Source of the DNA: Myxococcales bacterium
GTDB lineage: Bacteria > Myxococcota_A > UBA9042 > JABWCM01 > BTVJ01
DNA length: 64,000 nucleotides
Assembly: GCA_045863395.1 (NCBI GenBank)
Contig: BTVJ01000027.1
Span: 28,549-92,548, forward strand
Reading direction: 5' to 3'
A program made the translations under genes and the position numbers. Positions 44,629-64,000 of the stretch are shown piece by piece. The notes beneath the pieces are model-generated. The model was not told where the DNA came from. It was given only the letters and a program-made list of their open reading frames with translations, and made no database searches. Position 1 is the first letter of the stretch. The number at the start of each line of letters is the position of its first letter.

Positions 44629-44737
44629 GCCCGACCCGCGCCCGCCCGCCCCTCGACCGCGCACCGCCCGCCTGCTTCGTTTTCCCATTGGCGCTTTGGT
44701 GCTATGCTCCGCCCCTCCTGAGAGGTGGGCGCGCGGT

Positions 44738-47464
44738 ATGACCATCCCTGAGCAGTACCGGGCCGAGTTCGAAGCCGAGGTGCGCCAGCGCACGGCCAAG
44801 GCCATCTGGGTCGTCGGGCTCATCGCGCTGATCCTCTACCCTCCCACGATTCTCATGGATTGGGTGAGCTACCCGGAGCATCTGGGCGATCTCGCCCTCG
44901 TCCGCTTCGGCGCCACGGCGGCCATCGCGGTGTTCGTGGCCCTGCTGTGGACCTTGCGGCAGCGGGGGCTCGACGCACGGTTCGCCCGTGCGACCGTGTG
45001 GCTGTTCATCGTCGTCATCGCCACGAGCCTCGACCTCATGAGCTTGGTGGTGGGAGGGCCCGAGACCCCCTACTACGCAGGCATCACCCTGCTCTTGCTG
45101 GCCATCCTGGTGTCCATGCCGTGGGGGCTCGGGGAGATGGGGCTCGCCACGGGCTTCATCGTGATCCAGTACGACGTCGCGATGCTGATCTGGGACCCCG
45201 TGTTCGACATGCGTGGCTTCTTCATCGCCAACTACTTCTACTTCGCGACCATCTTCATCGGGCTGTTCTGGTGCGCCGCCGGGGATCAGCTCCGGCGGGT
45301 CGAGTTCCTCGGGCGCAAGCGCATCGAGGAGGAGCGCAGCCGCAGTGACCGCCTGCTCTTGAACATCCTGCCCGCCGAGGTGGCCGACGAGCTGAAGGAG
45401 CACGGCAAGGTGGAGGCGCGCACCATCGGGTCCTGCGCCATCCTGTTCACCGACTTCGTCGGGTTCACGAGGCTGGCGGGGCGCGCGGAGCCCGACGAGC
45501 TGGTGCGCGTTCTCGACGCGGCCTTCAGCCGCTTCGACGGCATCGTGACCAAGTGGGAGATCGAGAAGCTCAAGACCATCGGCGACGCCTACATGTGCGC
45601 CGGCGGAGTCCTCGGGAGACAGCCGGACCACCTGGTGCGGTCTGTCCTGGCAGGCCTCGAGATGCTGCACGCGCTGGAGTCGGCGGACTTGCGCTCCGTG
45701 GACGGCACGCCCTGGCGCATGCGCATCGGCATCCACACGGGCCCTGTCGTCGCAGGGATCATCGGGCGCAAGAAGTTCACCTACGATCTGTGGGGGGACA
45801 CGGTCAACACGGCGAGCCGGCTGGAGTCGACGGCGCTGCCCAACAGCATCAACGTGGCGACCTCGGTCTACAAGCAGGTGGAGCGCTTCTTCGTCGGCAT
45901 CGACCGGGGCTGGGTGCCCGTGCGTGGCAAGGGCGCCATGGCCATGACCCGTATCGTGCGCTTGAGGCCCGAGTTCTCGGCGGACGCCGCCGGGCACGCG
46001 CCCAATGCGCGGCTCTTCGAGGCACTGCCCGCCTGGATCGAGGCACAGGCGGAGCTTCCTCTCGCCTTGCCCCGGCCTGCACCGAAGGCGCGTGCGTCAA
46101 TGGAGAAGGACGGCCTGGATCCGCTCCACCTCCTGGCCCAGCTCACGGAGGAGGACAGGGAGCTGATCCTGCGCGCCGCCGAGCCCATCCGCTTCGAGGC
46201 GGGCCAGGTGCTCATCGAGCAGGGCCAGAGCCTGAGCGTGCTGTTCCTGGTGTTGGAGGGGACGCTGGCCGTGCGCATCGCACGTGAGCAGGTCGCCATC
46301 GACGTGGGCCTGCTCGGGCCCGGCGACATCGCCGGTGAGCTGTCCTTCGTGAGCTGGGAGCCGGCGAGCGCCACCGTCGCCGCCGTGGAGCCCGGCGCCG
46401 CGCTGCGCATCGACTTCGACTGGATGCAGGCGTTTGGCGCCAACCACCCGGAGACCGGGGTCCGCTTCTTCCAGTCCCTCGCCCTGGTCCTGGCCCAGCG
46501 GGTGCGGCAGGCCAACGCGCGGCTGTTCCTTCAGTCCGATGCCGGCGCGCGGACCGTCGGGGACCCCGAGCCGCCGAGCGACGCCGTGATGGAGCGGGTC
46601 GGGGTCTTCCAGGCCCGGCTCATCGAGGCTGCCTCGCTGCCCCCCGCTCGAGTGGACGCGACGGTCAGCGAGGCGTGCGACGCCCTGGTGGAGGTGCTGG
46701 ACGAGCCAGGCGCAGGGCCGGCCCTGCGCCGGGAGACGTCGTCCTTCCTGCTGCGGAGCGCCCTCATGGAGCGCTTGTGGGCGCGGCCCGCCCTGGACCT
46801 CGACGCGGCGGCCCACATCCTGCGCGGAGAGCCGAGGGGGCATGGGGCCGTCGGCGCGGCGGTGGACCGCTGGGTGCTGTCGCGGCCCTCCATCGCCGCG
46901 GTCCGGGAGGTCTTCGTGGCGTGCGGCCAGCAGATCGTGCGGGCGCGGCCGCGGCCCGGCGAGCCCCTTCGGGTGACGGTCCTCGGCGCGGCGGGGGCGC
47001 CGATGATGCTCGACGTGCTGCCCCAGATGGACGGTGCGGCGATCACGTGCGTGGACCACGACGTCTCCGCGCTGGCCGCCATCGGGCAGCGCGGGCGCAC
47101 CGCCCGCCTGTCCCTGGTGTGCAGCGACGTGCTGCGGACCGCCGAGTCCAGCAACCCCATGCGGCTGGTCCCGCAGGATCTCTTCGTGCTGCCGCACCTG
47201 GCGTCCCCCGTGGACGAGGGCATCCTGATGCGCGTTCTGGAGGATGCGTGGGCCGGGCTCGCGCCGGGGGGAGCCTTGGTCCTTGGGGCGCCGGCCGCGC
47301 CGGAGACGAGCCTGGTGGACGCCGTGCTCGGGCGCAGCCTGGGGGGAGTCCGGGCGACGGAGGTGCTTCAGCTCGCGGCGGCGACGCCCTTCCGGGACAG
47401 TCCGGCGGAGCAGATGGTGCTCGACGGGGGGCTGGGCACCGTGGTCGTGCTGAGGAGGGGCTGA
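44738..47464 (+). CDS. Membrane class III adenylate cyclase fused to a cNMP-binding domain and a methyltransferase-like domain
   Basis: About 6 TM; LFTDFVGFT, KLKTIGDAYM, YDLWGDTVNTASRLES; LIEQG...GELSF..ASATV; C-terminal Rossmann-like ITCVDHD...LAPGG. Confidence 0.85.
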   Translation: MTIPEQYRAEFEAEVRQRTAKAIWVVGLIALILYPPTILMDWVSYPEHLGDLALVRFGATAAIAVFVALLWTLRQRGLDARFARATVWLFIVVIATSLDLMSLVVGGPETPYYAGITLLLLAILVSMPWGLGEMGLATGFIVIQYDVAMLIWDPVFDMRGFFIANYFYFATIFIGLFWCAAGDQLRRVEFLGRKRIEEERSRSDRLLLNILPAEVADELKEHGKVEARTIGSCAILFTDFVGFTRLAGRAEPDELVRVLDAAFSRFDGIVTKWEIEKLKTIGDAYMCAGGVLGRQPDHLVRSVLAGLEMLHALESADLRSVDGTPWRMRIGIHTGPVVAGIIGRKKFTYDLWGDTVNTASRLESTALPNSINVATSVYKQVERFFVGIDRGWVPVRGKGAMAMTRIVRLRPEFSADAAGHAPNARLFEALPAWIEAQAELPLALPRPAPKARASMEKDGLDPLHLLAQLTEEDRELILRAAEPIRFEAGQVLIEQGQSLSVLFLVLEGTLAVRIAREQVAIDVGLLGPGDIAGELSFVSWEPASATVAAVEPGAALRIDFDWMQAFGANHPETGVRFFQSLALVLAQRVRQANARLFLQSDAGARTVGDPEPPSDAVMERVGVFQARLIEAASLPPARVDATVSEACDALVEVLDEPGAGPALRRETSSFLLRSALMERLWARPALDLDAAAHILRGEPRGHGAVGAAVDRWVLSRPSIAAVREVFVACGQQIVRARPRPGEPLRVTVLGAAGAPMMLDVLPQMDGAAITCVDHDVSALAAIGQRGRTARLSLVCSDVLRTAESSNPMRLVPQDLFVLPHLASPVDEGILMRVLEDAWAGLAPGGALVLGAPAAPETSLVDAVLGRSLGGVRATEVLQLAAATPFRDSPAEQMVLDGGLGTVVVLRRG

Positions 47465-51777: not shown

Positions 51778-51960
51778 GGTCATCCTCCAAAGTTCAGAGA
51801 TCGCCTCCAACAAATAGCGTAGTCCCCCGCGCGACCTGCGGGGGGGGAACGATGGGCCGTGGGTCCACGCTCGTGTCCGCGTGTAACCCATCGAGGGCAG
51901 GCTCATCGCGCTTGCGCGTGGCGGCGGCCTTGTGGAAAGGTGCCGCGCTGGAGGTGCGCG

Positions 51961-54942
51961 GTGCCGCTCACGGCGAAGGAGGCCCTGGAGGTCGTGCGGT
52001 ATTGGGCGGCGGCGGTCCGCCACGCCGAGGGCCTCGCGTGCCGCCTGCGCGTCGAGCCGTCGAGGCCGAGGCAGGCCCCCATCGACGTGCTCAACCCGGA
52101 CTGGGGGGCGCGCTACGCCAAGCTGGTCCCGGGGGCTGGTGGTGACGACCCGGTCCGTCGTCTCCTGCTGCGGGAGGCGACCTCGCTGACCTTGCCCGTG
52201 TCGGGGGACGTGGCCTCCCTCTTCGAGGGCTGGCTGCGGGGGCAGTACCGCGCCTCCATGTACCGCGCCATGGGGCTGCCGACAGACAGCGACGACGGGT
52301 GGTACGTCGCGTTCCCCGCGCTGCATGATCGAGGGCGCGCAGAGCTGGACGCCCTGCTGCGCATCCCCGTGGAGCGCCTGGACTGGCGCGCCGCGGACGG
52401 GGCCCCGTGGACGGCGCCGTCCTATGCGGCGCGGCGGAAGGGCGCGGCCCTGGGGCCGCCCGCGACGCTGCGCCTGCACGTGGCGCCCGCCGAGGGGGCA
52501 CCCTTTGCCGTGTCCGAGCAGGTGCTGTCCCGGGCCCTCGCGGTCGGGGAGGACGACCTGGCCGCCCTCTCCGCGCGCCTCGACGGGGCGTCGGCGCCCG
52601 CGGTGCTCGACGCCCTCGCCGACGTGTTGGGAGGTGGGGCGGGCGGGCCGGTCGAGCGGCTCGTGGGGGCGATGAACGCACGGCTGCCGGCGGGGCTGCG
52701 TGCCTGGGACGTGGCGTTGCTCTTCGACGGTGGCCGGCAGGCGCCCACCGCCGGGCTGCTCGCGGAGCTGCGGTCGCTGCTCGACGCGCCCGACCTCGTG
52801 AAGGCGGGCACTCCGCTGCACGCGTACCTGACGGGGGCTCGCCCGAAGGCGCGGCAGGGCATCGTCCGCGCCCTGCCCACTGCCGAGCCGCTCACCCCGG
52901 AGCAGCGCCGCGCCTTCGAGGAGGCATCCTCGCCGCTGACCGCCTGCCAGGGCCCCCCCGGGACGGGCAAGACCCGGCTCGTGGGGACGCTGCTCGCCGA
53001 CGCCGTCGTGGAGTCGGCGGCGCGGATCGCGGCGACGCTGCGGGGGTGGCCGCGCTCCGCGCCGACGGTGGTCGCGTCCACAAACAACCGCGCGGTGGAT
53101 ACGGCGCTGGAGCTCCTGGAGCGGGGGCCGGAGCGCCTCGGCCTGACCTGGCGCATCGGCAACCAGGAGGTGGTCGCGACGGCGGCCTGCGCCCGGCTGG
53201 AGCAGACCCTGGCGTGGCTCGACGATCCTGATGTGGAGGTCGCGCCGCTCGGCGACGCGCGCCGCGTGTTCGCCGAGGCCCGGGCGCGGGTCGACGCCGC
53301 CTTGGGCCCCCTGGTCGCGGCGCGGCGGGAGCAGGAGCGGGCCGTCACGCAGGGGCAGCGTCTGGTGGACGCCGAGCGGCGGCTCGCGGAGGCGAGCGCG
53401 GGGCTGGCGGGGCTCTCCGGCGCCCGGGTGCCGCGCGGGACGGCGGAGGCGGCTGAGGCGATGAAGGCCCTCAACGCGCTCATGGGGCGCCTCTACCTTC
53501 ACCTGGACGAGCGGCACCTCGGGCGGGCCAAGAAGGCCGCCAAGAAGCTGGTGAACAAGGTGCTGCCGCGGGCCCTCGTGGCGCTCGCGGCCATCGGGCG
53601 CCCGCTGAAGCTCTCGCCACCGCCGCCCGAGCCCTTCGAGCCGGACGTCTGGGAGCCGTTCATCGAGGACCGGGGGCCGGAGCTGTTCGACCTGGGCGAG
53701 GAGCTGGCCGCGCAGAGCGATCCGGAGGTCCGGCGCCGTCAGCTCGAGGCGGCACGCGAGGTGGCGGAGGAGGACGTGCGGCGGCTACACGAGGAGAGGG
53801 TCGTGGTCCCACCCGTGGACGCCGACGCCCTCTATGACGCCTCGGTCGATCTTCGCGCCGCGCTCTTCGAGGCCGCCTGTGCCCTGCGCGAGTCGTGGGC
53901 CCGCTCCGAGCGCGACGCCCTCGCGCCGCTCCTGTCGGCGACCCTCGCGGCGCTGCGGGAGCGGGGGGCCCCGAGCCGCGTCCTGGAGGACCCGGCCACG
54001 GCCCACGCGCTGCTCACCTTGTTCCCGGCGGTGGGGTGCACGCTCCTGTCCTTCCGGGGCTCCTTCCCTCTGGAGGCGGGGTGGGTAGAGCGCCTGATCG
54101 TGGACGAGGCGGGGCAGTGCCACCCGGCCTACATAGTGCCGGCGCTCTTGCGCGCCCGCGCTGCGCTGATCATCGGGGATGTCCACCAGCTCGAGCCCAT
54201 CGTGGAGACCGACGACGCGGAGGAGGAGCGCGCATTGACCCGATCAGGGTGCGCGCTCGACGGTGAGAAGCTCGACCCCTACCGCGTGCGGGCGCGGCGC
54301 CCCCCCTCGGCGCAGGCCCTGGCGGAGCGCGCGACCGGCCGCGTCACCTCCCTGCGCGACCACTTCCGGTGCCAGGGGCCGATCATCGCCATCTCCGACC
54401 GGTTGTGCGGGTACGACCTGCGGGTGCGCACGCCGCCCCGCTCCTTCGGCGACCGCGTGCCGTGGCTGGAGGCGCCGGTGGTGCTGCTCCCGGCGCTCGG
54501 CGAGCAGGTGGCGGACGGCGGCTCCTGGCGAAACGACGTGGAGCGGGACCTGGTGCTCGGCGCCCTGCGGGACCTGCTGGACGCGGGCGTGCCGCCGGCG
54601 GACATCGCGGTGCTGACCCCCTACCGCGGCCAGCTCTACGCGCTGCGCCGGGGACTGAGGGGCCTGCTGGGCGGCCGCGGCGACGACTGGGCCGAGAGCG
54701 GGGACGTGGGGGGAATCGCCGTCGGGACGGTCCACCGATTTCAAGGGGGGGAGCGCGACGTGGTCCTCTTCTCGACGGTGATCACCCGCGACCGCTCGCT
54801 CCCCTTCCTCAACGAGCGCGTCAACCTGGTCAACGTTGCCGCGTCGCGGGCGCGCGTCCACCTGGTGGTCGTCGGTGATCCAGACGTGCTCTCACGGGGC
54901 GAGGTGACCCGGGAGCTGGTGCGGGCGGCGCGGGTGGGGTGA
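51961..54942 (+). CDS. Superfamily 1 helicase (DNA2/NAM7-like; AAA_11/AAA_12)
   Basis: GPPGTGKT, ASTNNRAVD, IVDEAGQ, GDVHQLEP, HFRC, TPYRGQ, TVHRFQGGERD, NVAASRAR. Confidence 0.9.
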   Translation: MPLTAKEALEVVRYWAAAVRHAEGLACRLRVEPSRPRQAPIDVLNPDWGARYAKLVPGAGGDDPVRRLLLREATSLTLPVSGDVASLFEGWLRGQYRASMYRAMGLPTDSDDGWYVAFPALHDRGRAELDALLRIPVERLDWRAADGAPWTAPSYAARRKGAALGPPATLRLHVAPAEGAPFAVSEQVLSRALAVGEDDLAALSARLDGASAPAVLDALADVLGGGAGGPVERLVGAMNARLPAGLRAWDVALLFDGGRQAPTAGLLAELRSLLDAPDLVKAGTPLHAYLTGARPKARQGIVRALPTAEPLTPEQRRAFEEASSPLTACQGPPGTGKTRLVGTLLADAVVESAARIAATLRGWPRSAPTVVASTNNRAVDTALELLERGPERLGLTWRIGNQEVVATAACARLEQTLAWLDDPDVEVAPLGDARRVFAEARARVDAALGPLVAARREQERAVTQGQRLVDAERRLAEASAGLAGLSGARVPRGTAEAAEAMKALNALMGRLYLHLDERHLGRAKKAAKKLVNKVLPRALVALAAIGRPLKLSPPPPEPFEPDVWEPFIEDRGPELFDLGEELAAQSDPEVRRRQLEAAREVAEEDVRRLHEERVVVPPVDADALYDASVDLRAALFEAACALRESWARSERDALAPLLSATLAALRERGAPSRVLEDPATAHALLTLFPAVGCTLLSFRGSFPLEAGWVERLIVDEAGQCHPAYIVPALLRARAALIIGDVHQLEPIVETDDAEEERALTRSGCALDGEKLDPYRVRARRPPSAQALAERATGRVTSLRDHFRCQGPIIAISDRLCGYDLRVRTPPRSFGDRVPWLEAPVVLLPALGEQVADGGSWRNDVERDLVLGALRDLLDAGVPPADIAVLTPYRGQLYALRRGLRGLLGGRGDDWAESGDVGGIAVGTVHRFQGGERDVVLFSTVITRDRSLPFLNERVNLVNVAASRARVHLVVVGDPDVLSRGEVTRELVRAARVG

Positions 54943-54948
54943 GCGGCA
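54830..54948 (+). repeat. 119-bp direct repeat, copy 1 (helicase 3' end)
   Basis: Matches 59007-59125 with 3 mismatches by my alignment. Confidence 0.9.
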
Positions 54949-55007: not shown

Positions 55008-57404
55008 TCACGAGTCGCCCGTTCCCTCCCCGAGGCTGTCGACATGGGCAAAGGCTCGATCCAGAAACTCGCGGTGCGCGAACTCCGCGGGAAGCGGCTG
55101 GCTGTTGGTCCCGAGGATCCTCTCTTCGATGGGCTGGCCCTTGAGGGCACGCGCCGCAAGGTCCGGCCGACCGTTGTTGCCGAGGTACTGGGCGTAGGTG
55201 TTCCGCGTGGGCCCTAGCTTCTGATTGGCCGAATACGAGGCGTACCAGTGCATGCCGGCCTCCTCGTCCCAGTCGTAGGCATACAGCAGGACGGCAAAGT
55301 TCGACTGGATGGCGGGTGTGTCTGCGTCGGGAGTCAGCCAGCGGCGCTCGAGGAGACGCCGATAGATTTCCATGGCCTCGTGTCGCGCCTCGGTGTCCTC
55401 ACGCCGCTCTGCCAGGGCATCCGCAAGTCCCCTCAGGCGCCGGTAGGCGAAGTGCGCTTGCGTGCAGCCGAAGATGGACTCCTCCAGCGCGAGCCAGGCA
55501 AGGTCCGGGTCGGAGAACTCCTTGGCGGCCGTCAGCGCCCGCAGGTAGCCCGTGTCTTCGTCCTCCGACTCCTCCCGGACCGCCTTCATGAGACTCTCCC
55601 TGAGCTCGGCCGAGCCCGGAAGGACCTCTCCCCGTAGCCGTGCCACCTGGGCCTCGAGGAGCGCCCTCCGCTCCGGCTTGTGCGACGCGTAGCGAGTTCG
55701 CAGCTCGGACAGGAGCGCGTCCGCCTCGTCGAGGCGTGCCTCACGGTGGTCCGCGATGAATGAGGCGTAGTTCATCATGTTGTTGGGGTGCCGGGGCTGC
55801 ATTCTCAGTGACAGTGCAAACAGAACGTCAGCGAAGTCATAGGCTCCGAACTTCTCGACCCAGAGGGCGAGGTTCCCGATCTCGTTGGCTCGGTCAGCAG
55901 ATATCTTCTCTCCATGCTGGCCCGCCACCTTGTAGGCTTCGAGGGCGTTCTGCAGGGCGCCCATCCGGTCGTCGTTCTGCTCGGCGGTCCTCGCTTCGTA
56001 GTACTTCGTCATGAACTGGACCTCGGAGTCGCCGCCCAAGACCGTGTCCATGTCGAACCGGAAGGGCACCTGTCTGCCAATGTCATCCCCTGCTGCCCTC
56101 TCGTCGCCGCCAAAGAAGAAGTGCGGAGCCAGCGCGATGTATCGGACCAGGTCGCGAGGAAGGGGCGCGTCAAAGAACGCGCCACGAAACAATGGCTTGA
56201 GGCGCGCCGTGAGGAAGTTCAGCTTCTCGTCGTCGCGTTCCTCCTCTCTGACGAAGGCGATGCACGCGGACTCCAGCTCCCGCCAACCTCGCTCGGCCCT
56301 GGTGTCCCCCTGAAGTGCGGGGGTCAGGAGCTGGTCGTGAAAGTCACGCCACGAATATTGTAGTACGCGTCGTTTGATGACGTGCTCGGGCGGTTCACTT
56401 CGGTCCAGCGCGCTCCGGATGTCGGGCCGAATCGTGTTGAGGCAGCGCTTCACTGCGCGAGGCGTCTTGATTCGCAGCCCCTTCTCGAGGAGCTGCACGT
56501 TGTCGGAGATGGCGTGCGAGACGGCGTCGTCGCCGTAGGTTGCGAGGAGTTTCGTCACGTAGCTACGAAGCCGTTGCGTGTCGAGGGGCGGCAGGGTGAT
56601 CGTGTGCTGAACGTACTTTTCGAGGGCGTGGTCTGGGTCGACCGTCGAGCCACCGTCCTTCTGTGCCCGATAGAGGAGAGCCTGCCGAAGCGCTTGGTGA
56701 TCGAGGGCCAGCACGAAGAACAGGTTGGGCACGCTGCCCCACTGCTGAGTGATGTCGAGGATCTCGGAGACCAGCGCCGGTGAGCACCGGTCCAGGTCGT
56801 CGATGAGAATAGCAAGCACGCGCGACGAGTTCGGTGTGCCGGTCTGACCCTCTCCGCGTATCTCCTTTGCCAGGAGCTCAGGAAAATCAATGACTCGCGC
56901 GAGTTCGTGGGACGTTCGGCGAAGCGTTTGATCCACGAGGACGGCCGCGGTCGACGGGTCCGAAGGCAGCGCCTCGAGACTGCCCACCGTTGCCGTCTCG
57001 AACAGCCGGAGCGCCATCCTCGGGCTCCCCGCCAGGCTCGTCAGGGCGCGCATGGCCAGGGTGCTGCGGACGTCGGCGTCCACGCCCACGTAGGCCGACG
57101 CCACATAGTCGCACTGAACCAGGCGATGTGCGTTGCCACCTGCGCTGCGGCGAGCGGTCTCGGCGATCATCCGTAGCAGGCTGCTCTTGCCGCAGCCCCA
57201 CTCGGCGTGAATGGCGAAGGTCATGGAGTCGCTGTCGGCCCTGGACGCATTGCCGGGCTCCTCGGACAGCAGGGGACGTGTGATCCGCTCCGCGACGTCG
57301 CGCACCTGGTCTCGAGTGCTGGCGCCGTCCTCGATCCAGAGAAGGTCCGAGTCCACTCCAACGGGTCGGTCCGAAAAATAGAGCCAGCGGTTGTTGGTCA
57401 TCAC
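55008..57404 (-). CDS. KAP-family P-loop NTPase with a C-terminal TPR-like region
   Basis: FSDRP, AIHAEWGCGKSS, ILIDDLDRC, LEKYVQ, TPRAVKR; C-terminal helical repeats (NNMMNYASF, SNFAVLLY). Confidence 0.88.
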   Translation of the reverse strand: MMTNNRWLYFSDRPVGVDSDLLWIEDGASTRDQVRDVAERITRPLLSEEPGNASRADSDSMTFAIHAEWGCGKSSLLRMIAETARRSAGGNAHRLVQCDYVASAYVGVDADVRSTLAMRALTSLAGSPRMALRLFETATVGSLEALPSDPSTAAVLVDQTLRRTSHELARVIDFPELLAKEIRGEGQTGTPNSSRVLAILIDDLDRCSPALVSEILDITQQWGSVPNLFFVLALDHQALRQALLYRAQKDGGSTVDPDHALEKYVQHTITLPPLDTQRLRSYVTKLLATYGDDAVSHAISDNVQLLEKGLRIKTPRAVKRCLNTIRPDIRSALDRSEPPEHVIKRRVLQYSWRDFHDQLLTPALQGDTRAERGWRELESACIAFVREEERDDEKLNFLTARLKPLFRGAFFDAPLPRDLVRYIALAPHFFFGGDERAAGDDIGRQVPFRFDMDTVLGGDSEVQFMTKYYEARTAEQNDDRMGALQNALEAYKVAGQHGEKISADRANEIGNLALWVEKFGAYDFADVLFALSLRMQPRHPNNMMNYASFIADHREARLDEADALLSELRTRYASHKPERRALLEAQVARLRGEVLPGSAELRESLMKAVREESEDEDTGYLRALTAAKEFSDPDLAWLALEESIFGCTQAHFAYRRLRGLADALAERREDTEARHEAMEIYRRLLERRWLTPDADTPAIQSNFAVLLYAYDWDEEAGMHWYASYSANQKLGPTRNTYAQYLGNNGRPDLAARALKGQPIEERILGTNSQPLPAEFAHREFLDRAFAHVDSLGEGTGDS

Positions 57405-58639
57405 CCTCCTCTCTGCCGTCTCGGTGACGTGGGCGTGGTCGCGCAGTCCCGGGATACGATGCTGGGCCAGATCTGGGTGGTGAGCAGGACGCTCAGGTCA
57501 TCCAAGGTGGCAACGCATCGAAATGAGATGGTCCTCGCCTGCGCCACGAACGGAACAGGGTCTGCGGAGATGCAGAGCTGCCCCTCGGGCTGCCTGTAGT
57601 CACCGCCGCAAACACCCCATGTGCCATCTCCGATTCGCACGAGCTCGTAGAAGTTCCCCACGATGTCGCGGAGGCCGATCAGGTTCTGAGGCGGAAACCG
57701 AGATACGGGGGTCGGTGCAAAGCGCCTCCTGACATCGCCATGGTTGCACCGGCTGGCCACGAACGCGCGTCCCCACGGGTAGTTCGGGACCGGGTCGACT
57801 CCCCCCGCGGCAGCCTGGCGCCACTGCAACAACGTCGGGAGGTTCTTCCCGTGCGCCGCGGCATAGGTCAGCGCGTCATCGGAGTTCAGCCCGCTCGCGG
57901 GGAACTCGCCCGAACCCGCCACTCCCTCCCAGGGGTCCTCCCAGAACAGCTCTCCGGGGCGACGGGAGAGGAACGTGGACCAGTCTCTCGCGGTCACCGG
58001 GTCGCGGTCCACGTAGAAACCGCCCGCGCCCGCCGGGACCCAGGCCATGACTCGCCCATCGAGGGGCCAGCGAATCAGCGGAGGGGTCCCTGCGGCGAGG
58101 TTCTCCAGGCGCGGCTCGGGAACCTCCGCAGGTGCCGCGGTATCGCCGATGGTGGCGGCTGAGTCGCCGGGGGTGGCGAAATCTCTCGTACCCTCGGCGA
58201 GGAGCCACTCGACGACGAGGACGAGCGAGGCGAGAGGGAGGTCCACATCGTCCCTGCTGACCTTTCCCCAAAGCGTCTCGTCCTCGAAGTGGCCATGGGT
58301 AGCCGCGTTTCCCCAGCGTTGGATGTTCTCCAAGTGCAGCTTGATGCGCAACGGAAGCAGGCGTCGCTTGTTGAGTTCCACGAACAACTCGTTGAACGCA
58401 GACCTCGACCAGTCTCCGGCGTCGTGCTCGGAGAGTGCAAGCCGCATGGAGCGCTCGGCCGTCTTTCGGATCTGGGTCAACGCTGCCTCGGGCTCGACGC
58501 TCAAGACTTTGCGGGCGACGTCCACAGCGTCCTGCAGGTAAGTGCGGTCGGTGTGCTTCACGCTGGCAGTCTCCCGCGAGAGCGCGGCCAAAGCCGTAGT
58601 AAGGAACACGTCGCACAATGCGGGGTGTTTGTCAACCAC
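57401..58639 (-). CDS. DUF4145 (HEPN-like) plus FGE-sulfatase domain protein
   Basis: IRKTAE...LENIQRWGNAATHG; FYVDRDPVT, LPTLLQWRQAA, YPWG, GLRDIVGNFYE, GG...SFRC. Stop overlaps the KAP start; own start uncertain (GTG 58639). Confidence 0.8.
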   Translation of the reverse strand: MVDKHPALCDVFLTTALAALSRETASVKHTDRTYLQDAVDVARKVLSVEPEAALTQIRKTAERSMRLALSEHDAGDWSRSAFNELFVELNKRRLLPLRIKLHLENIQRWGNAATHGHFEDETLWGKVSRDDVDLPLASLVLVVEWLLAEGTRDFATPGDSAATIGDTAAPAEVPEPRLENLAAGTPPLIRWPLDGRVMAWVPAGAGGFYVDRDPVTARDWSTFLSRRPGELFWEDPWEGVAGSGEFPASGLNSDDALTYAAAHGKNLPTLLQWRQAAAGGVDPVPNYPWGRAFVASRCNHGDVRRRFAPTPVSRFPPQNLIGLRDIVGNFYELVRIGDGTWGVCGGDYRQPEGQLCISADPVPFVAQARTISFRCVATLDDLSVLLTTQIWPSIVSRDCATTPTSPRRQRGG

Positions 58640-58721
58640 ATCGCCTTCGGCTCGCTGAGGCGGCCGGTGTGGAGTGGGACTGACGCAGGTGGCCCCGTAC
58701 ACGAAACGGCGCTTGCGGTCG

Positions 58722-59119
58722 GCGCTGATCATGGGCGATGTCCATCCGGTGGAGCCCGTCGTGGAGACGGACGACGCGGAGGAGGAGCGCGCGCACGGCC
58801 GCTCGGGGTGTGCGCTCGGCGCTGTGAGCCGCGACCCCTACCGCGTGCGTGCGCGTTCCCCTCGCGGCGCGGGCCCTGGCGAAGCGCGCGACGGGCCGCG
58901 TCACCGCGTTGCGCCGGGGTCCACGGGGAATGCTGGGCGGCCGCGGCGCCCACTGGGCCGAGGGCGGGGACGTGGTGGGCGTCGCGGTGGGAACGGTCCA
59001 CCGATTTCAACGTGGCCGCGTCGCGGGCGCGCGTCCACCTGGTGGTCGTCGGTGATCCAGACGTCCTCTCCCGGGGCGAGGTGACCCGGGAGCTGGTGCG
59101 GGCGGCGCGGGTGGGGTGA
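58722..59119 (+). pseudogene. Degenerate duplicate of the helicase 3' region
   Basis: Homologous to about 54163-54942 (ALIMGDVHPVEP...VAVGTVHRFQ...NVAASRARVHLVVVGD), with two internal deletions and frameshifts. Confidence 0.85.
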
Positions 59120-59125
59120 GCGGCA
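59007..59125 (+). repeat. 119-bp direct repeat, copy 2
   Basis: Matches 54830-54948. Confidence 0.9.
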
Positions 59126-59214
59126 GGCGCGAGTCCGTGGCCTTGGTGTCCGAGGGTCGGCGGCGTCTCCCTCGTGCCTTGCGCCGCGCGGGTCCGTTGG
59201 CTACGGTGGCCTCC

Positions 59215-60777
59215 ATGAGGTTCTTCAATACTGCGGGGCCCTGCATCGAGGGCATGCACTACATGCTCCCGCCGCTCGACCGCATCCCCGAGGCGCGCGG
59301 GCTCGTGGACCGGGGGGCGTACTTCGTCATCCACGCGCCGCGGCAGTCGGGCAAGACCACCTCGCTGCGGGCGCTGGCCGCGGCCCTCACGGCCGAGGGA
59401 CGCTACGCGGCGCTCGCCTTCTCGTGTGAGACTGCCGCCATGGTCGGCGACGACTATGCGGCGGCGCAGCAGGCAATCCTGCACCAGATCGGCGTTGGCG
59501 CTCGCCTCGACCTGCCCAGGGAGCTGCGTCCGCCTGCGCTTCCTTTATCGACGCCGCCTAACGGCCTCCTCACCGATGCGCTGGTCGAGTGGAGCCTCGC
59601 GTGCCCTCGCCCCCTGGTGCTCCTCTTCGACGAGATCGACGCGGTGCGCGGCGACAGCCTCCGGTCCGTGCTCAGCCAGCTCCGCGCGGGGTTCGTCGCC
59701 CGTGGGCGCGGGTTCCCGTGGTCGGTGGTGCTCTGCGGCATGCGCGACGTCAGCGACTACCGCACCGCGGCGGGCGCAGACCCGGACCACATCGGCCTGT
59801 CGAGCCCCTTCAACGTGAAGTCCAAGACCCTGAGCCTCGGGCGCTTCAGCCGGAGCGAGGTCGCGGCGCTCTACGCCCAGCACACGGCCGACACGGGCCA
59901 GCCCTTCGTGGACGGCGCCATCGACCGCGCCCTGGAGCTCACCGGCGGGCAGCCCTGGCTCGTCAACGCGCTCGCCCGCGAGGTCGTCGAGGAGATCGGA
60001 GTGCCTCCGGCGGAGCCCATCGCCGCCGCCCACTGCGAGGAGGCCAAGGAGCGGCTCATCCTCGCGCGGCAGACCCACCTCGACTCCCTGGTCGCCCGGC
60101 TCCAGGAGCCGCGAGTCAGGCGCATCGTGGCGCCGCTGCTCTCCGGCGACGCCCTCGGGGGCGACGAGTACGACGACGACGCCGCGTTCGTGCGCGACCT
60201 GGGCCTCGTCACCGACAAGCCCCTGCGCATCGCCAACCCCATCTACCGGGAGGTCATCGTCCGCGTCCTGGCCGGCGCCGCCGACGACAACATCCGGCTC
60301 CCCGACCGGGCCTGGGCACAGGCCGACGGCCGCCTCGACCTGCGGGCGCTCCTCGACGCCTTCGCGGACTTCTGGCGCGAGCAGGGCGCCGCCCTCGCCC
60401 CGAGGATGCCCTACCACGAGGTGGCCGCCCAGCTCGTGCTGTCCGCCTGGCTCCAGCGCGTCGTCAACGGTGGCGGCTTCGTGGACCGGGAGTACGGCGT
60501 CGGGATGAAGCGCATCGACGTGCTCGTGCGGTGGCCCCTCGGCGGCGGCTGGCAGCGCGAGGCCCTGGAGCTCAAGATGCGCCGCGCGGGAGAGGCAGAC
60601 CCGACGCCGGAGGGGTTGCGGCAGATCGAGGGCCATCTGACGTCGCTCGGCCTCCAGCACGGGTGGCTCGTCGTCTTCGACCGCCGCCCCGACGCTCCCC
60701 CGGTCGCCGAGCGCACCCGCTTCGAGGAGGGGCAGACGCCCACCCTCGGGCTCGCCGTGTCGATCCTGCACGCCTGA
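59215..60777 (+). CDS. AAA-type ATPase with a C-terminal PD-(D/E)xK nuclease domain
   Basis: MRFFNTAGPC, HAPRQSGKTT, LLFDEID, SPFNV, GGQPWL; C-terminal REY...RID...ALELK. Confidence 0.85.
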   Translation: MRFFNTAGPCIEGMHYMLPPLDRIPEARGLVDRGAYFVIHAPRQSGKTTSLRALAAALTAEGRYAALAFSCETAAMVGDDYAAAQQAILHQIGVGARLDLPRELRPPALPLSTPPNGLLTDALVEWSLACPRPLVLLFDEIDAVRGDSLRSVLSQLRAGFVARGRGFPWSVVLCGMRDVSDYRTAAGADPDHIGLSSPFNVKSKTLSLGRFSRSEVAALYAQHTADTGQPFVDGAIDRALELTGGQPWLVNALAREVVEEIGVPPAEPIAAAHCEEAKERLILARQTHLDSLVARLQEPRVRRIVAPLLSGDALGGDEYDDDAAFVRDLGLVTDKPLRIANPIYREVIVRVLAGAADDNIRLPDRAWAQADGRLDLRALLDAFADFWREQGAALAPRMPYHEVAAQLVLSAWLQRVVNGGGFVDREYGVGMKRIDVLVRWPLGGGWQREALELKMRRAGEADPTPEGLRQIEGHLTSLGLQHGWLVVFDRRPDAPPVAERTRFEEGQTPTLGLAVSILHA

Positions 60778-61018
60778 CGGGGCTCGCCGTGGGTCAGACG
60801 CTGCGAGGTGCGACGACCCGAGGCTTCCGCACGTCGTGCTGCGTCATGCCCTCCCGCCTGTGAGCCGACCCGCCGCTCGCTCCGGCTCGCTGTCCTCTGT
60901 CAGATCGGGACGTCTCGATGTTCCTTGGGGGGGACACAGCGGTCGGGTGGAGCGGTGTTTCCCGTTGACAGCGCCCGGATTCAGGACCGATTCTAGGCGA
61001 CACACAGGGAGGTGGCCG

Positions 61019-64000
61019 ATGGCGGGGAGTGATGAGGTGCGGGAGCTGATCGAGCGGCTGCCGTATCCGGTGGCTCGGGCGGCGGCGGTGGCGTTCGACG
61101 AGGGGGCGACACCTCAGCTCCGGCTGTGGAACGTACCGCACGCCGCGTACCAGGCGCTTCGGATGGTGACGCTCCCCGTCGTGGCGCAGTACCTGGACGC
61201 GCCGGTGGAGACGGCGGCCATGGCGGACCAGAAGGCCGTGGCAGACATTGCGGCGGCCCTGGCGGAGCTGCGGCACCCGTTCTACCCGTCGTGGGTCACG
61301 CTGCTCGACACGCTGGCGAAGAAGGTGACGCCCTCCACGGTGGGCATCGAGCCGTTGCTCCCGCTCCGGGACGTGAAGGCGGCCCTCGACGGGGCAAAGC
61401 AGACGGCGCCCGACCCGCTGTACCCGTGCCCCCGGGGTGATGGTTCGCACCCGCCGCACGCGCTGATCTGGGGGCTTCGCAATGGCCTCGCCCATGGCGG
61501 GGACCTGCCGCCCGATCACGAGTCGCTGCGGCTGCTCGCGCTCTACCTTCCGTTGGTCGCCGCCCTCCTGCGCGCCGTGGCGCCGCTCGCCGACGCCCGC
61601 CTCCTGCTCCTGGACGGCCCCATGGACGGCGAGTGGACGCGGGTGCGGTGGCTCAGAGGCCCGACCCTGGGCGGCGCCGAGGCCGTCGGGGACGACGAGG
61701 GGGCGGAGGAGGCGCTCCGCGGGAGCCCGGTCGTGCTGTCGCTGGGGCGGGGGCGGGCCGTCGGGCTCTGGCCGTTGCTGGTGGCGACCGAGGGGCAGGT
61801 CGTGGGCCTCTACGACGGGCACTACGACCGCAAGACCTATGACCCCGACGGCAAGGTCCGGGCGACGCAGCACCTGATCTACCTCGGCGCCGGCAGCGAA
61901 CGCTGGCGGGAATCCTTGGGGTTCGAACGCCTCGTGGGGCGGCTCGAGGCGCGCAGGGCGGCGTGGAGCACCCCGCGCGAGAAGGCCGCGCCGTGGACCA
62001 TCGCCGAGTGCGCCCGCTACACGACCGGGACGACGGTGCTGGCGCTGCGCGGCGTGAAGTACCTGCCCGACGTGCACGTGGACCGGCCGGACCTGGCCCG
62101 CTGGGTCGGGTGGTGGCTCGACGGCAGCGAGTCGCCCGCGAGCACACCCGCCGCGCGGCGCTACCGGAACGGCCTGATCCTCGCCGGCGCGGCGGGCTCG
62201 GGCAAGACGGCGTGGTCGCTCCACCTGGCGGAGCGCCTGCTCGCCGAAGGGGTGCCCCCCGAGGCGGGCGACGCGGCGGCGCGCGAGGGGCGCAACATCG
62301 TGCTGCTCCTGCGGGGCGACCAGCTCCCGGAGCGCCCGGCCCGCCGGGAGCACGAGGGGCGGCTCCTGCCGACGGTCCTCGAGCACTTGGGCCTGCGCAA
62401 CCAGGACTTCAAGGGCTTCGGCGACCTCTTCGCCCAGCTCGCGAGCCAGTGGGGCAAAGACCAGCGGCGTGACAGGCGCCTCGTGGTGTTGCTCGACGCG
62501 GTCAACGAGGCGCCCCTGCCCGTGGAGCTGCTCACCGAGGTGGGCGACCTCGTTGCGGCGGCCGCTGCGGTCCCGTGGTGCCGGGTGGCGGTGACGATGC
62601 GCGAGGAGCTGCTGGCCGTGGTGCTCGCCAGTGGGCACGGCCAGGAGCGCCCGCCGCTCTTCGCGTCGGACGCGTGGCTCTGGTCGCCGCCGGAGGCGGA
62701 GCTGCGCGACGCGGGACTCTCCCAGGCGCCCAGCCCCTGGACCCCGCTGCGGCTCCTGACGGTGGACGAGGCGGGCCTCGCTTACGAGCGCCTGCGGACG
62801 ACCCGCGGCGCGCAAGCCTGCACGACCCCGTGGGCCCACCTGGGCGCCACCGTGCGAGAGGAGCTCCGGTCGCCGCTGCTGCTGTTCGTCCACCACCGGG
62901 CCTACGCGGGCCGGTCCGCGGCGCAGGCGACCTTCAGCGAGCCTGGTGACACCGGCCTGGCGAGCACGAACCCCCGTCACGCCCTGCTTGGCGCCTACCT
63001 GGACCAGATCTTCCGCGAGTTCCCGCGCCTGGAGCGCGTGTGCATGGAGGTCGTCTCGCGCCTCGCCGAAGCCGGCCGCGCGCTGCTGTCCGACGCGGAC
63101 GCCCGTGATCTCGCGGAGCGCCCGGACCCCACGGGGCGCCGCGTGGAGCTGAGCCCGGCAGAGCAGCTCGTCCACGCGGGCCTGCTGCGCCGCCTCCCCG
63201 CCGGGGAGGGCAGCGGCTTCACCTTCGTCTTCGACTCCGTCCTCGAGGCGCTGCTCCACCGCCTGTGGTGCGAGCAGGCACCGGGGCTGCCGCTCGAGGC
63301 CCTGCAGGAGCGCGTGCGGCGCGGGATCGAGGCCGGCGCCCCCGAGGCGTGGTGGAACGCGTTCGCCTTCGTCTTCGACGACCTCCTGCGCGCAGGCAGG
63401 GCGGCCGACTGGCCGGCGCTGATCAACGGCACGTCGCCACAGGCGCTCGACGCGGCCGCCGCGCGAGCGTGGGCGCTGGCCGCCGCGACGTGCGGAGTGG
63501 CCTCGGACGCGCCGGCCGAGGCGCTCCTCGCGACCCCGGCCGGGCTCGTGGTGGCGGCCTTCGGCGCGCGCCAGGAGCCGTGGGCCGCAGGGCGCCTCCG
63601 CGATCTGGACGCGGCGCTCGCGCACACGGGGCGCCCGGAGTGGAGCGCCCTGCTCCACGGGGCGGCCCGCACGATCCTAGAAGCGGTGGTCGCGGCCGGC
63701 GCCCGCGAGCTGCGCAACGACCTCGCGATGGTCGACAACAACCTCGGCAACGCCCTGCGAGGCCTCGGGCGGCTCGACGAGGCCGTCGCGGCCTACGGCC
63801 GGGCCCGGGAGTTTTTCGCCGAGCTGGTCGAGCGCGAGGGCCGGCGCGAGCTGCGCAACCACCTCGCGATGGTCGACAACAACCTCGGCAGCGCCCTGCA
63901 AGACCTCGGGCGGCTCGACGAGGCCGTCGCGGCCTACGGCCGGGCCCGGGAGTTTTTCGCCGAGCTGGTCGAGCGCGAGGGCCGGCGCGAGCTGCGCAAC
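61019..64000 (+). CDS. HEPN-like + STAND/NACHT-like NTPase + TPR protein (NLR/Avs-like); runs off the window
   Basis: Not in ORF track because no stop occurs in the window. GGGAGG RBS, then MAGSDEVRELIERLPYPVAR. RNGLAH at 61478-61495, Walker A GAAGSGKT at about 62186, Walker B LVVLLDAVNE at about 62480, TPR repeats from 63704; all in one frame. Confidence 0.85.
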   Translation, partial: MAGSDEVRELIERLPYPVARAAAVAFDEGATPQLRLWNVPHAAYQALRMVTLPVVAQYLDAPVETAAMADQKAVADIAAALAELRHPFYPSWVTLLDTLAKKVTPSTVGIEPLLPLRDVKAALDGAKQTAPDPLYPCPRGDGSHPPHALIWGLRNGLAHGGDLPPDHESLRLLALYLPLVAALLRAVAPLADARLLLLDGPMDGEWTRVRWLRGPTLGGAEAVGDDEGAEEALRGSPVVLSLGRGRAVGLWPLLVATEGQVVGLYDGHYDRKTYDPDGKVRATQHLIYLGAGSERWRESLGFERLVGRLEARRAAWSTPREKAAPWTIAECARYTTGTTVLALRGVKYLPDVHVDRPDLARWVGWWLDGSESPASTPAARRYRNGLILAGAAGSGKTAWSLHLAERLLAEGVPPEAGDAAAREGRNIVLLLRGDQLPERPARREHEGRLLPTVLEHLGLRNQDFKGFGDLFAQLASQWGKDQRRDRRLVVLLDAVNEAPLPVELLTEVGDLVAAAAAVPWCRVAVTMREELLAVVLASGHGQERPPLFASDAWLWSPPEAELRDAGLSQAPSPWTPLRLLTVDEAGLAYERLRTTRGAQACTTPWAHLGATVREELRSPLLLFVHHRAYAGRSAAQATFSEPGDTGLASTNPRHALLGAYLDQIFREFPRLERVCMEVVSRLAEAGRALLSDADARDLAERPDPTGRRVELSPAEQLVHAGLLRRLPAGEGSGFTFVFDSVLEALLHRLWCEQAPGLPLEALQERVRRGIEAGAPEAWWNAFAFVFDDLLRAGRAADWPALINGTSPQALDAAAARAWALAAATCGVASDAPAEALLATPAGLVVAAFGARQEPWAAGRLRDLDAALAHTGRPEWSALLHGAARTILEAVVAAGARELRNDLAMVDNNLGNALRGLGRLDEAVAAYGRAREFFAELVEREGRRELRNHLAMVDNNLGSALQDLGRLDEAVAAYGRAREFFAELVEREGRRELRN
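63704..64000 (+). repeat. 141-bp near-identical tandem repeats encoding 47-aa TPR-like units
   Basis: Units start at 63704, 63845 and 63986; units 1 and 2 differ at 4 positions. Confidence 0.92.

Follow-up and report, generated by a model that had tools for sequence, protein, structure and literature searches.

A putative HEPN-headed STAND–TPR receptor encoded at a contig end in a Myxococcales bacterium

What does the long open reading frame (ORF) that runs off the end of a Myxococcales contig encode, and what might it respond to? The DNA analysed, called the window below, is a stretch of 64,000 nucleotides (assembly GCA_045863395.1, contig BTVJ01000027.1, positions 28,549–92,548), and the gene in question occupies its last part (61019–64000, forward strand). 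A first-pass annotation, made from the sequence alone, had described it as an Avs-like or NLR-like gene absent from the ORF track, with an HEPN-like effector, a STAND NTPase and a TPR sensor. With moderate confidence, we read its product (the query) as a one-gene bacterial NLR-like defence receptor with an HEPN RNase head. In the proposed mechanism, the TPR repeats would bind a foreign, probably phage, protein in the TPR groove; binding would make the STAND ATPase switch oligomerize, and the oligomer would pair the HEPN heads into the predicted RNase. The RNase would then cut RNA, probably tRNA or rRNA, and the infected cell would arrest. Autoinhibition, ligand-driven oligomerization, RNA cleavage and anti-phage function are all proposed on the model of Avs proteins and of other HEPN enzymes.

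From the ATG at 61019 to the end of the window the frame comprises 994 codons with zero stops, and a ribosome-binding-site-like GGGAGGT (61005–61018, +) lies directly 5′ of the ATG, as had been noted in the first-pass annotation. The G+C content by codon position 1/2/3 is 0.79/0.52/0.94, a coding pattern like that of the host's other genes. The ORF listing gives the frame solely as 3′-open from a GTG at 60836, which would account for its absence from the ORF track. The ATG appears to be the better start because an identical protein, P0002 (GMU41974.1), begins there and alignments of the best relatives start at query residues 6–13. No promoter was called in 60600–61100; a TTGACA is found about 50 nucleotides upstream, with only a poor −10 element. 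The motifs named in the annotation were recovered: the Rx4H motif RNGLAH at residues 154–159, Walker A (GAAGSGKT) at 390–397, Walker B (LLDAVNE) at 491–497 and Pfam TPR families, above cut-off, at 901–978. The domain order read from the sequence is HEPN, a beta-rich domain, STAND and TPR.

The window ends at the end of contig C27 (contig position 92,548), where the assembly stops within 141-nucleotide TPR repeats and the 3′ end of the gene is lost. P0002 is identical to query residues 1–931, contains a single repeat and is complete at 1034 residues, with a C-terminal helical cap that also ends the close relatives P0009 and P0011. Given the recurrence of this cap and the halt of the assembly in repeats, we regard the gene as cut by the assembly, the missing end being likely to consist of more repeats plus the cap. 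Searches of the same genome with the tail (blastn) and with the P0002 cap (tblastn) returned nothing beyond C27. One contig of the public DNA run X1, from which the window DNA may derive, spans 60509–63733 with 0 differences and likewise ends at the repeats. Read depth is raised over the repeats, which is not a copy number. Contigs of the RNA run X15 cover 61084–62514 and 62833–63552 with few differences; contigs cannot show transcription. A 2-nucleotide insertion at 63112, present in one contig each of runs X15 and X17, was not counted, as long pieces that span the site are gapless.

The copy might instead be broken past the contig end, or might carry a C-terminal effector such as CHAT, two alternatives that the annotation itself had raised. 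The position of the 3′ end outside the assembly would allow this, and four of the 13 distinct loci with relatives are broken (L004, L005, L007 and L034), some perhaps through assembly errors. Against it, no disruption is visible up to position 64000, P0002 is complete and shares its helical cap with P0009 and P0011, and scans of 42 long relatives listed neither a CHAT nor a caspase family. We consider a broken or differently ended copy very improbable.

The N-terminal segment (residues 11–192; 61049–61594, +) is predicted to be an HEPN-type helical domain and the RNase effector. The AlphaFold2 model of residues 1–330 (pLDDT 95) is helical up to residue 192 and beta-rich after it. In a fold search against 48,161 chains, 16 of the 20 top rows were HEPN-type (Z 5.0–7.3, root-mean-square deviation 3.1–5.5), matching approximately residues 12–192. 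Twelve of these rows are HEPN-type by title or papers (2hsb, 1jog, 1wwp, 3o10, 4nqf, 1ylm, 1wol, 5yep, 5hy3 and three Csm6 structures), and the others (two Roquin rows, 2jpu and 1ufb) we take to be HEPN-type.

When 1.84 billion cluster representatives were searched with residues 1–330, 91 hits reached E ≤ 0.001; many of these are fragments, and P0081 is spurious. Alignment A2 was built from 63 chosen hits and two other relatives, short or apparently frame-shifted ones being excluded. In this alignment R154 of the RNGLAH motif (61478–61495, +) is present in 65/65 rows, N155 in 64/65 and H159 in 61/65, and RxxxxH is complete in 61 of the 65 relatives. In an unfiltered 98-row alignment the corresponding counts, among rows with a residue, are 80/82, 74/81 and 74/83. 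Few polar residues of the head are as well conserved as these three. By itself Rx4H is weak evidence, being common by chance (30% of shuffled versions of residues 1–200 contain Rx4H and 0.3% contain RNx3H), and the weight of the motif derives from its conservation.

The head is followed by a beta-rich domain (residues 194–312; 61598–61954, +), delimited by predicted secondary structure, which belongs to no recognised family and contains a conserved YDGH motif. D266 of this domain is present in 51 of 54 rows. No row of the fold searches covered residues 194–312 well; these searches used the model of head plus beta-domain, the domain was never folded alone, and a new fold is not thereby shown. 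Two copies of residues 1–315 were then predicted as a homodimer, with a value of 0.57 compared with 0.00 for the best of three controls (pLDDT 89); at least 95% of contacts recur between runs. In a benchmark, 20 of 30 solved pairs attained the mark, as did one of 23 single chains. The predicted contacts (154–158′, 158–158′ and 159–266′) place RNxxxH on the two-fold axis, as expected for a composite HEPN site, and place D266 against H159 of the partner chain. This pass may itself reflect likeness to solved HEPN dimers. With an HEPN-type helical-bundle model and a conserved motif centred on the predicted dimer, the HEPN-like N-terminus proposed at the outset holds at the level of modelling. We are highly confident that the head has an HEPN fold, and by analogy it is likely to be an active RNase.

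Several results weigh against this assignment or do not bear it out. The Z values of 5.0–7.3 fall where the tool warns of a mere common helical arrangement, and G-protein-coupled receptors and designed bundles reach Z 4.5–5.9 in the same search. Foldseek with the head returned nothing at E ≤ 0.001, and no Pfam HEPN model matches the query head even at E ≤ 1. Weak Pfam HEPN_RiboL-PSP or HEPN_Swt1 matches lie on the motif in four of 32 proteins (best E 0.0035), none of them the query, and the head profile gave 0 matches at E ≤ 10 against PDB sequences. The ESM Atlas placed the head in unnamed clusters at 0.82, within the chance range, and the whole protein in generic TPR/NACHT clusters. P0014, P0016, P0017 and P0083 have lost the catalytic His with the Arg kept, and are possibly inactive or sensor-only forms. 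The best fold match of the head is the N-terminal region of Roquin, which binds RNA and is not known to be catalytic.

On the strength of the Roquin match, the head might be HEPN-like yet serve as a non-catalytic RNA-binding or dimerizing module, the protein being a signalling or regulatory STAND. Some relatives carry C-terminal extras that would suit such a role (FHA and GGDEF in the relative at locus L006, a bifunctional-nuclease domain in P0027 and zinc ribbons in P0089), contigs of an RNA run cover much of the gene, and the Swt1-like HEPNs include inactive members according to the part of PMC3710099 available to us. The high conservation of R154, N155 and H159 and their position on the predicted dyad speak for catalysis instead. 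No DNA-binding domain was found in the query, and patchy spread and frequent breakage suit a costly gene. A non-catalytic head therefore seems to us distinctly improbable, and the RNase reading is kept below.

The STAND module (nucleotide-binding domain, helical domain and winged helix; residues 343–753; 62045–63277, +) was assigned from motif counts and fold matches. It contains Walker A (62186–62209, +), Walker B (62489–62509, +), the sensor-1 residue R528 and P619. In a 47-row alignment Walker A is intact in 46 rows, D493 is present in all 47 and R528 in 46. The model of full-length P0002 (pLDDT 88) has the STAND–TPR protein 6mfv, NLRP14 and NLRP3 as top Foldseek matches, together with Orc/Cdc6; NLRC4 matches over 416 residues with Z 11.2, and BrxC scores highest with Z 14.9. 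The nearest solved chains by profile are 9n00 (SeAvs7; E 1.4e-4) and 9o4e (EcAvs2; E 2.2e-4). These comparisons point to a STAND NTPase, weakly nearest to Avs2 and Avs7. Of 31 long family proteins, 12 are matched by Avs2 PADLOC models at E ≤ 1e-5, in the NTPase over profile positions ~208–536 alone and not over the sensor; the query has no such match. The NACHT family PF05729 does not match the query, and a few relatives reach or approach its cut-off. Query NTPase matches in Pfam and NCBIfam are weak and below cut-off, and PADLOC gave none. For the head there is no model in Pfam, NCBIfam or PADLOC, so that PADLOC-type annotation misses the family.

Two of these points sit uneasily with an NLR-like defence receptor. 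PADLOC returns no match for the query at all. The winged-helix His position is F in 25 of the 47 rows, Y in eight and H in only six. In the available text of the bNACHT preprint, this His restrains NLRC4 and bNACHT25, and its loss hyperactivates both (10.1101/2022.07.19.500537). Because the His is mostly replaced by F or Y in the family, the off-state of its switch may be held differently from that of NLRC4 and bNACHT25.

The STAND module is followed by a helical arm with degenerate TPR-like repeats (residues 754–895; 63278–63703, +), all-helical in the model and with TPR-type fold matches from ~residue 755. The remainder (63704–64000, +), the predicted sensor, consists of near-identical 47-residue (141-nucleotide) TPR repeats with 97% nucleotide identity, two whole (94 residues) and the start of a third. 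The two whole repeats share 43 of 47 residues. Their four base differences are all nonsynonymous and fall at TPR positions −1 (33), 9, 12 and 13, numbered from the TPR Leu7-Gly8. The variable ligand-face positions of TPRs are 2, 5, 9, 12, 13, 33 and 34 in the available part of PMC1261162, and all four differences thus lie on these seven hypervariable positions (P ~2e-4 by simple counting). Arrays of at least four repeats with 50% or more likeness occur in 13 relatives, and variation there is greatest at positions 5, 2, 9, −1, 31, 12 and 13, six of seven being on the ligand face; these arrays are less uniform (0.51–0.78) than the query repeats. At L036 the proportion of nonsynonymous differences (pN) at ligand-face positions is 0.38 and that of synonymous differences (pS) 0.10, where a G+C content at third codon positions (GC3) of 0.98 biases pS downward. 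Surface exposure alone also increases variation at such positions.

The query has at least three repeats and P0002 one, in proteins otherwise identical over 931 residues; this difference is either a real polymorphism or an assembly collapse. Taken together, the repeat sequences suggest that the sensor diversifies by repeat exchange. Two further cases are of separate note. P0076 (261 residues) joins the start of the HEPN head straight to TPRs, without an NTPase. L007 (3593–15079) contains a tandem pair of copies, each frame-shifted, and the TPR array of one of them has roughly 25 units.

Such variability can be read in more than one way. A sensor this variable poorly fits an Avs-style reading of one conserved phage fold, and at L007 pN is 0.43 and pS 0.40, near neutral; both points tell against a phage-sensing receptor. 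The same RNase switch might respond to a non-phage trigger, in the manner of fungal HET-type NLRs, which serve non-self recognition; candidate triggers are polymorphic proteins of the host or its kin, proteins from plasmids or competitors, and host components under guard. The hallmark of fungal allorecognition NLRs, in the portion of PMC4986451 available, is near-identical repeats with a variable concave face and a variable number, and a similar behaviour, with fast repeat shuffling in NLR-like sensors, has been proposed for multicellular bacteria (10.1101/2020.01.06.895854, seen in part). The TPR part of the query also matches the Podospora near-identical TPR structure 4y6c with Z 13.2, level with other TPR proteins. 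On the other side, the bacterial STAND–TPR families tested mostly sense phage proteins (PMC13581612, accessible part), and the nearest solved NTPases are those of Avs7 and Avs2. Whether the TPR array binds a phage protein directly is, by analogy, an evenly balanced matter.

At 50% identity the family falls into about 90 clusters, and many of these are fragments. Family profiles were run on 50 proteins of at least 800 residues, a set in which the query and its twin are counted, along with one hit that is unrelated. HEPN, beta-domain and STAND were found together in 45 of them. Of the remaining five, two gave no beta hit, one gave no STAND hit, one begins inside the beta-domain and the last is P0081. 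All of nine additional proteins have head and STAND. A search with the NTPase only gave 12 proteins, of which 11 carry the head and one is truncated at its N-terminus. The search scored only 8000 candidates, some of them belonging to its own alignment, and within that reach the head appears constant across the family. Long members have 980–1899 residues, and most C-termini show a 46–48-residue period. Of 31 long relatives, 24 have TPR families at E ≤ 1e-6. The effector–STAND–TPR layout of Avs and NLR-like proteins, to which the annotation had likened the gene, recurs in these counts.

The HEPN or NTPase part occurs in three of 60 related genomes and the head in five of 400 genomes of the phylum, one of them weak. 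No relative was found in IMG/VR (pattern scan), PLSDB or GenBank phages, and the head gave no viral fold match. A metagenome scan gave at least one locus with a relative, and one family member belongs to a named species (Allochromatium humboldtianum HW932_02975; P0111).

The gene terminates a cluster in which a Mokosh-like helicase, a KAP NTPase and a DUF4145-like plus FGE gene precede it. The superfamily 1 helicase (51859–54942, +) gave strong partial matches to Mokosh MkoC and MkoA (E 3e-57 and 1.5e-43) and no kinase match. Two overlapping genes follow on the opposite strand (55008–58732, −): one DUF4145-like (weak, E 4e-4) with an FGE-sulfatase-like part, the other a KAP NTPase with PifA/QatA-like matches and a long helical tail. 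The pair is a candidate two-gene defence module. It is flanked by repeated 3′ pieces of the helicase gene (54150–54948 and 58709–59125; 80–97%) and has a GC3 of 0.80 compared with about 0.93; it resembles an insert that separates duplicated ends of the helicase gene. An AAA ATPase gene with a C-terminal PD-(D/E)xK-like stretch, a motif recognised by eye, lies next (59116–60777, +). Six further near-full copies of it occur in the genome at 71–82% identity, and it is a lineage-specific expansion. It was considered as a partner of the query and rejected in view of the six other copies and of the absence of a neighbour matching relatives' loci; none of the four window neighbours matched at any of those loci. 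Since no neighbours are shared and the AAA gene is multicopy, the query is treated as a one-protein system. A few kilobases from the defence-like cluster, 44696–47464 (+) encodes a membrane adenylate/guanylate cyclase with a cyclic-nucleotide-binding domain.

Defence-, toxin–antitoxin- or conflict-type neighbours were recognised at six of the 13 loci, counted on hand-picked ORFs only and with no background control. The relative at L006 (1–12800), which bears the C-terminal FHA and GGDEF fusion, lies directly downstream of BREX pglX-brxC-pglZ; the fusion is possibly a second, signalling output. A paralogue on contig C55 (L002 6640–10948, −), with an N-terminal zinc ribbon and the winged-helix His kept, lies directly 3′ of an MNT and HepT toxin–antitoxin pair. 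A PD-(D/E)xK gene is a neighbour at L035 and a PIN-like gene at L005, and at L003 (1–5846) and L007 a gene with TCAD9 and a kinase-like part follows the family member. That only six of 13 loci have such neighbours, leaving seven without a clear defence neighbour, counts against a defence receptor and is compatible with a non-phage trigger; the BREX-adjoining relative is a point for phage. We hold a non-phage trigger to be unlikely. The patchy spread (3/60 and 5/400), the four broken loci of 13 and the BREX, MNT–HepT and KAP–Mokosh neighbours are defence-like behaviour, and a defence role for the query is likely.

If a phage-responsive, HEPN-armed receptor is indeed what the gene encodes, the family would give a handle on how oligomerization licenses a dimeric RNase in HEPN-armed STANDs. 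The pair formed by the query and P0002 (at least three repeats versus one, with 931 identical residues) is a direct handle on repeat shuffling. An RNase that is triggered by a protein and takes its input through modular TPRs would also be useful as a chassis for sensors.

Among known systems, the closest in description are the Swt1-like HEPN proteins fused to STAND ATPase, TPR and S1 domains, Npun_F6454, MED222_16016 and Desac_1927 (PMC3710099, Table 1, from the 2013 HEPN classification, available in part). These share with the query an N-terminal HEPN with Rx4H, a STAND NTPase, TPRs and a predicted role as defence RNases. They have an S1 domain, whereas no S1 family was listed for the 42 long relatives, the end of P0002 models as all-helical, and the query has a beta-domain after the HEPN. 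The HEPN_Swt1 profile gave no query match at E ≤ 1 and matched one of 32 proteins at E 0.11, below the cut-off. The two groups were compared by description and profile.

Avs2 and Avs7 have the same effector–STAND–TPR layout (PMC13601566 and PMC13581612, in the parts available). The effectors named there are DNases or uncharacterized, whereas the query head is a predicted HEPN RNase. No full-length match to Avs2 with its terminase-binding sensor was found: the query has no PADLOC match, and relatives match in the NTPase part only. As described there, Avs proteins keep the sensor and swap effectors; the query family has a constant head and a simple tandem array of variable length. This may amount to an inverted Avs logic, in which a fixed HEPN head of a new subtype has its His completed in trans by an Asp of the beta-domain and specificity is changed in the TPRs by repeat recombination, as in fungal HET receptors, a tentative idea that we think rather unlikely in full. 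Were it true, the protein would be a naturally reprogrammable RNase that senses proteins, and the first HEPN-armed STAND amenable to laboratory work. In the accessible part of the 2026 survey of 589 STAND clades, HEPN comes up solely in connection with a Streptomyces protein that has an Avs7-type sensor (PMC13581612). Neither HEPN nor Swt1 occurs in the part of its supplements covered; the clade and effector tables lie outside that scope and may list the family. The bNACHT proteins share the tripartite NLR-like anti-phage layout, and their 2022 preprint includes HEPN and Schlafen RNases among predicted NACHT effectors and, in the portion available, mentions no tested HEPN-bearing bNACHT (10.1101/2022.07.19.500537). 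The family differs from them in its Walker B (DAxNE), in the mostly F or Y residue at the winged-helix His position and, for the query, in the lack of a Pfam NACHT match.

Fungal NLRs resemble the query array in their near-identical TPR units, concave-face variation and varying unit number, with NLRs of high internal repeat conservation having 85% identity over 100 residues (PMC4986451, available part). The query differs in being bacterial, in its predicted intrinsic RNase head and in that shuffling is deduced from repeat sequences. Gating of an RNase by a STAND is an established principle in human SAMD9, a STAND-like protein whose N-terminal effector cleaves tRNA-Phe upon viral infection (PMC10246899, available part). 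Its host is eukaryotic and its nuclease fold is not HEPN, unlike the query. That fold is presumably AlbA_2/Schlafen-like.

No experimentally tested HEPN–STAND–TPR protein appears in the available parts of PMC13601566, PMC12839542, PMC10853773, PMC8195603 and PMC13092281. Our literature search, in which coverage of subscription papers was limited, found HEPN-armed STANDs only as predictions. The first-pass annotation had placed the effector type outside the characterized Avs1–4 proteins; the missing PADLOC match agrees with this, while the novelty it might imply is reduced by the HEPN heads already placed on STAND–TPR proteins (PMC3710099 and 10.1101/2022.07.19.500537, each seen in part). Computational work of 2013 and 2022 had thus already predicted the design, whose principle is not new. 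To these known systems the locus adds an unmodelled family with an extra beta-domain that carries a conserved Asp, a head that is fixed within the searches made and a TPR array that varies on its ligand face.

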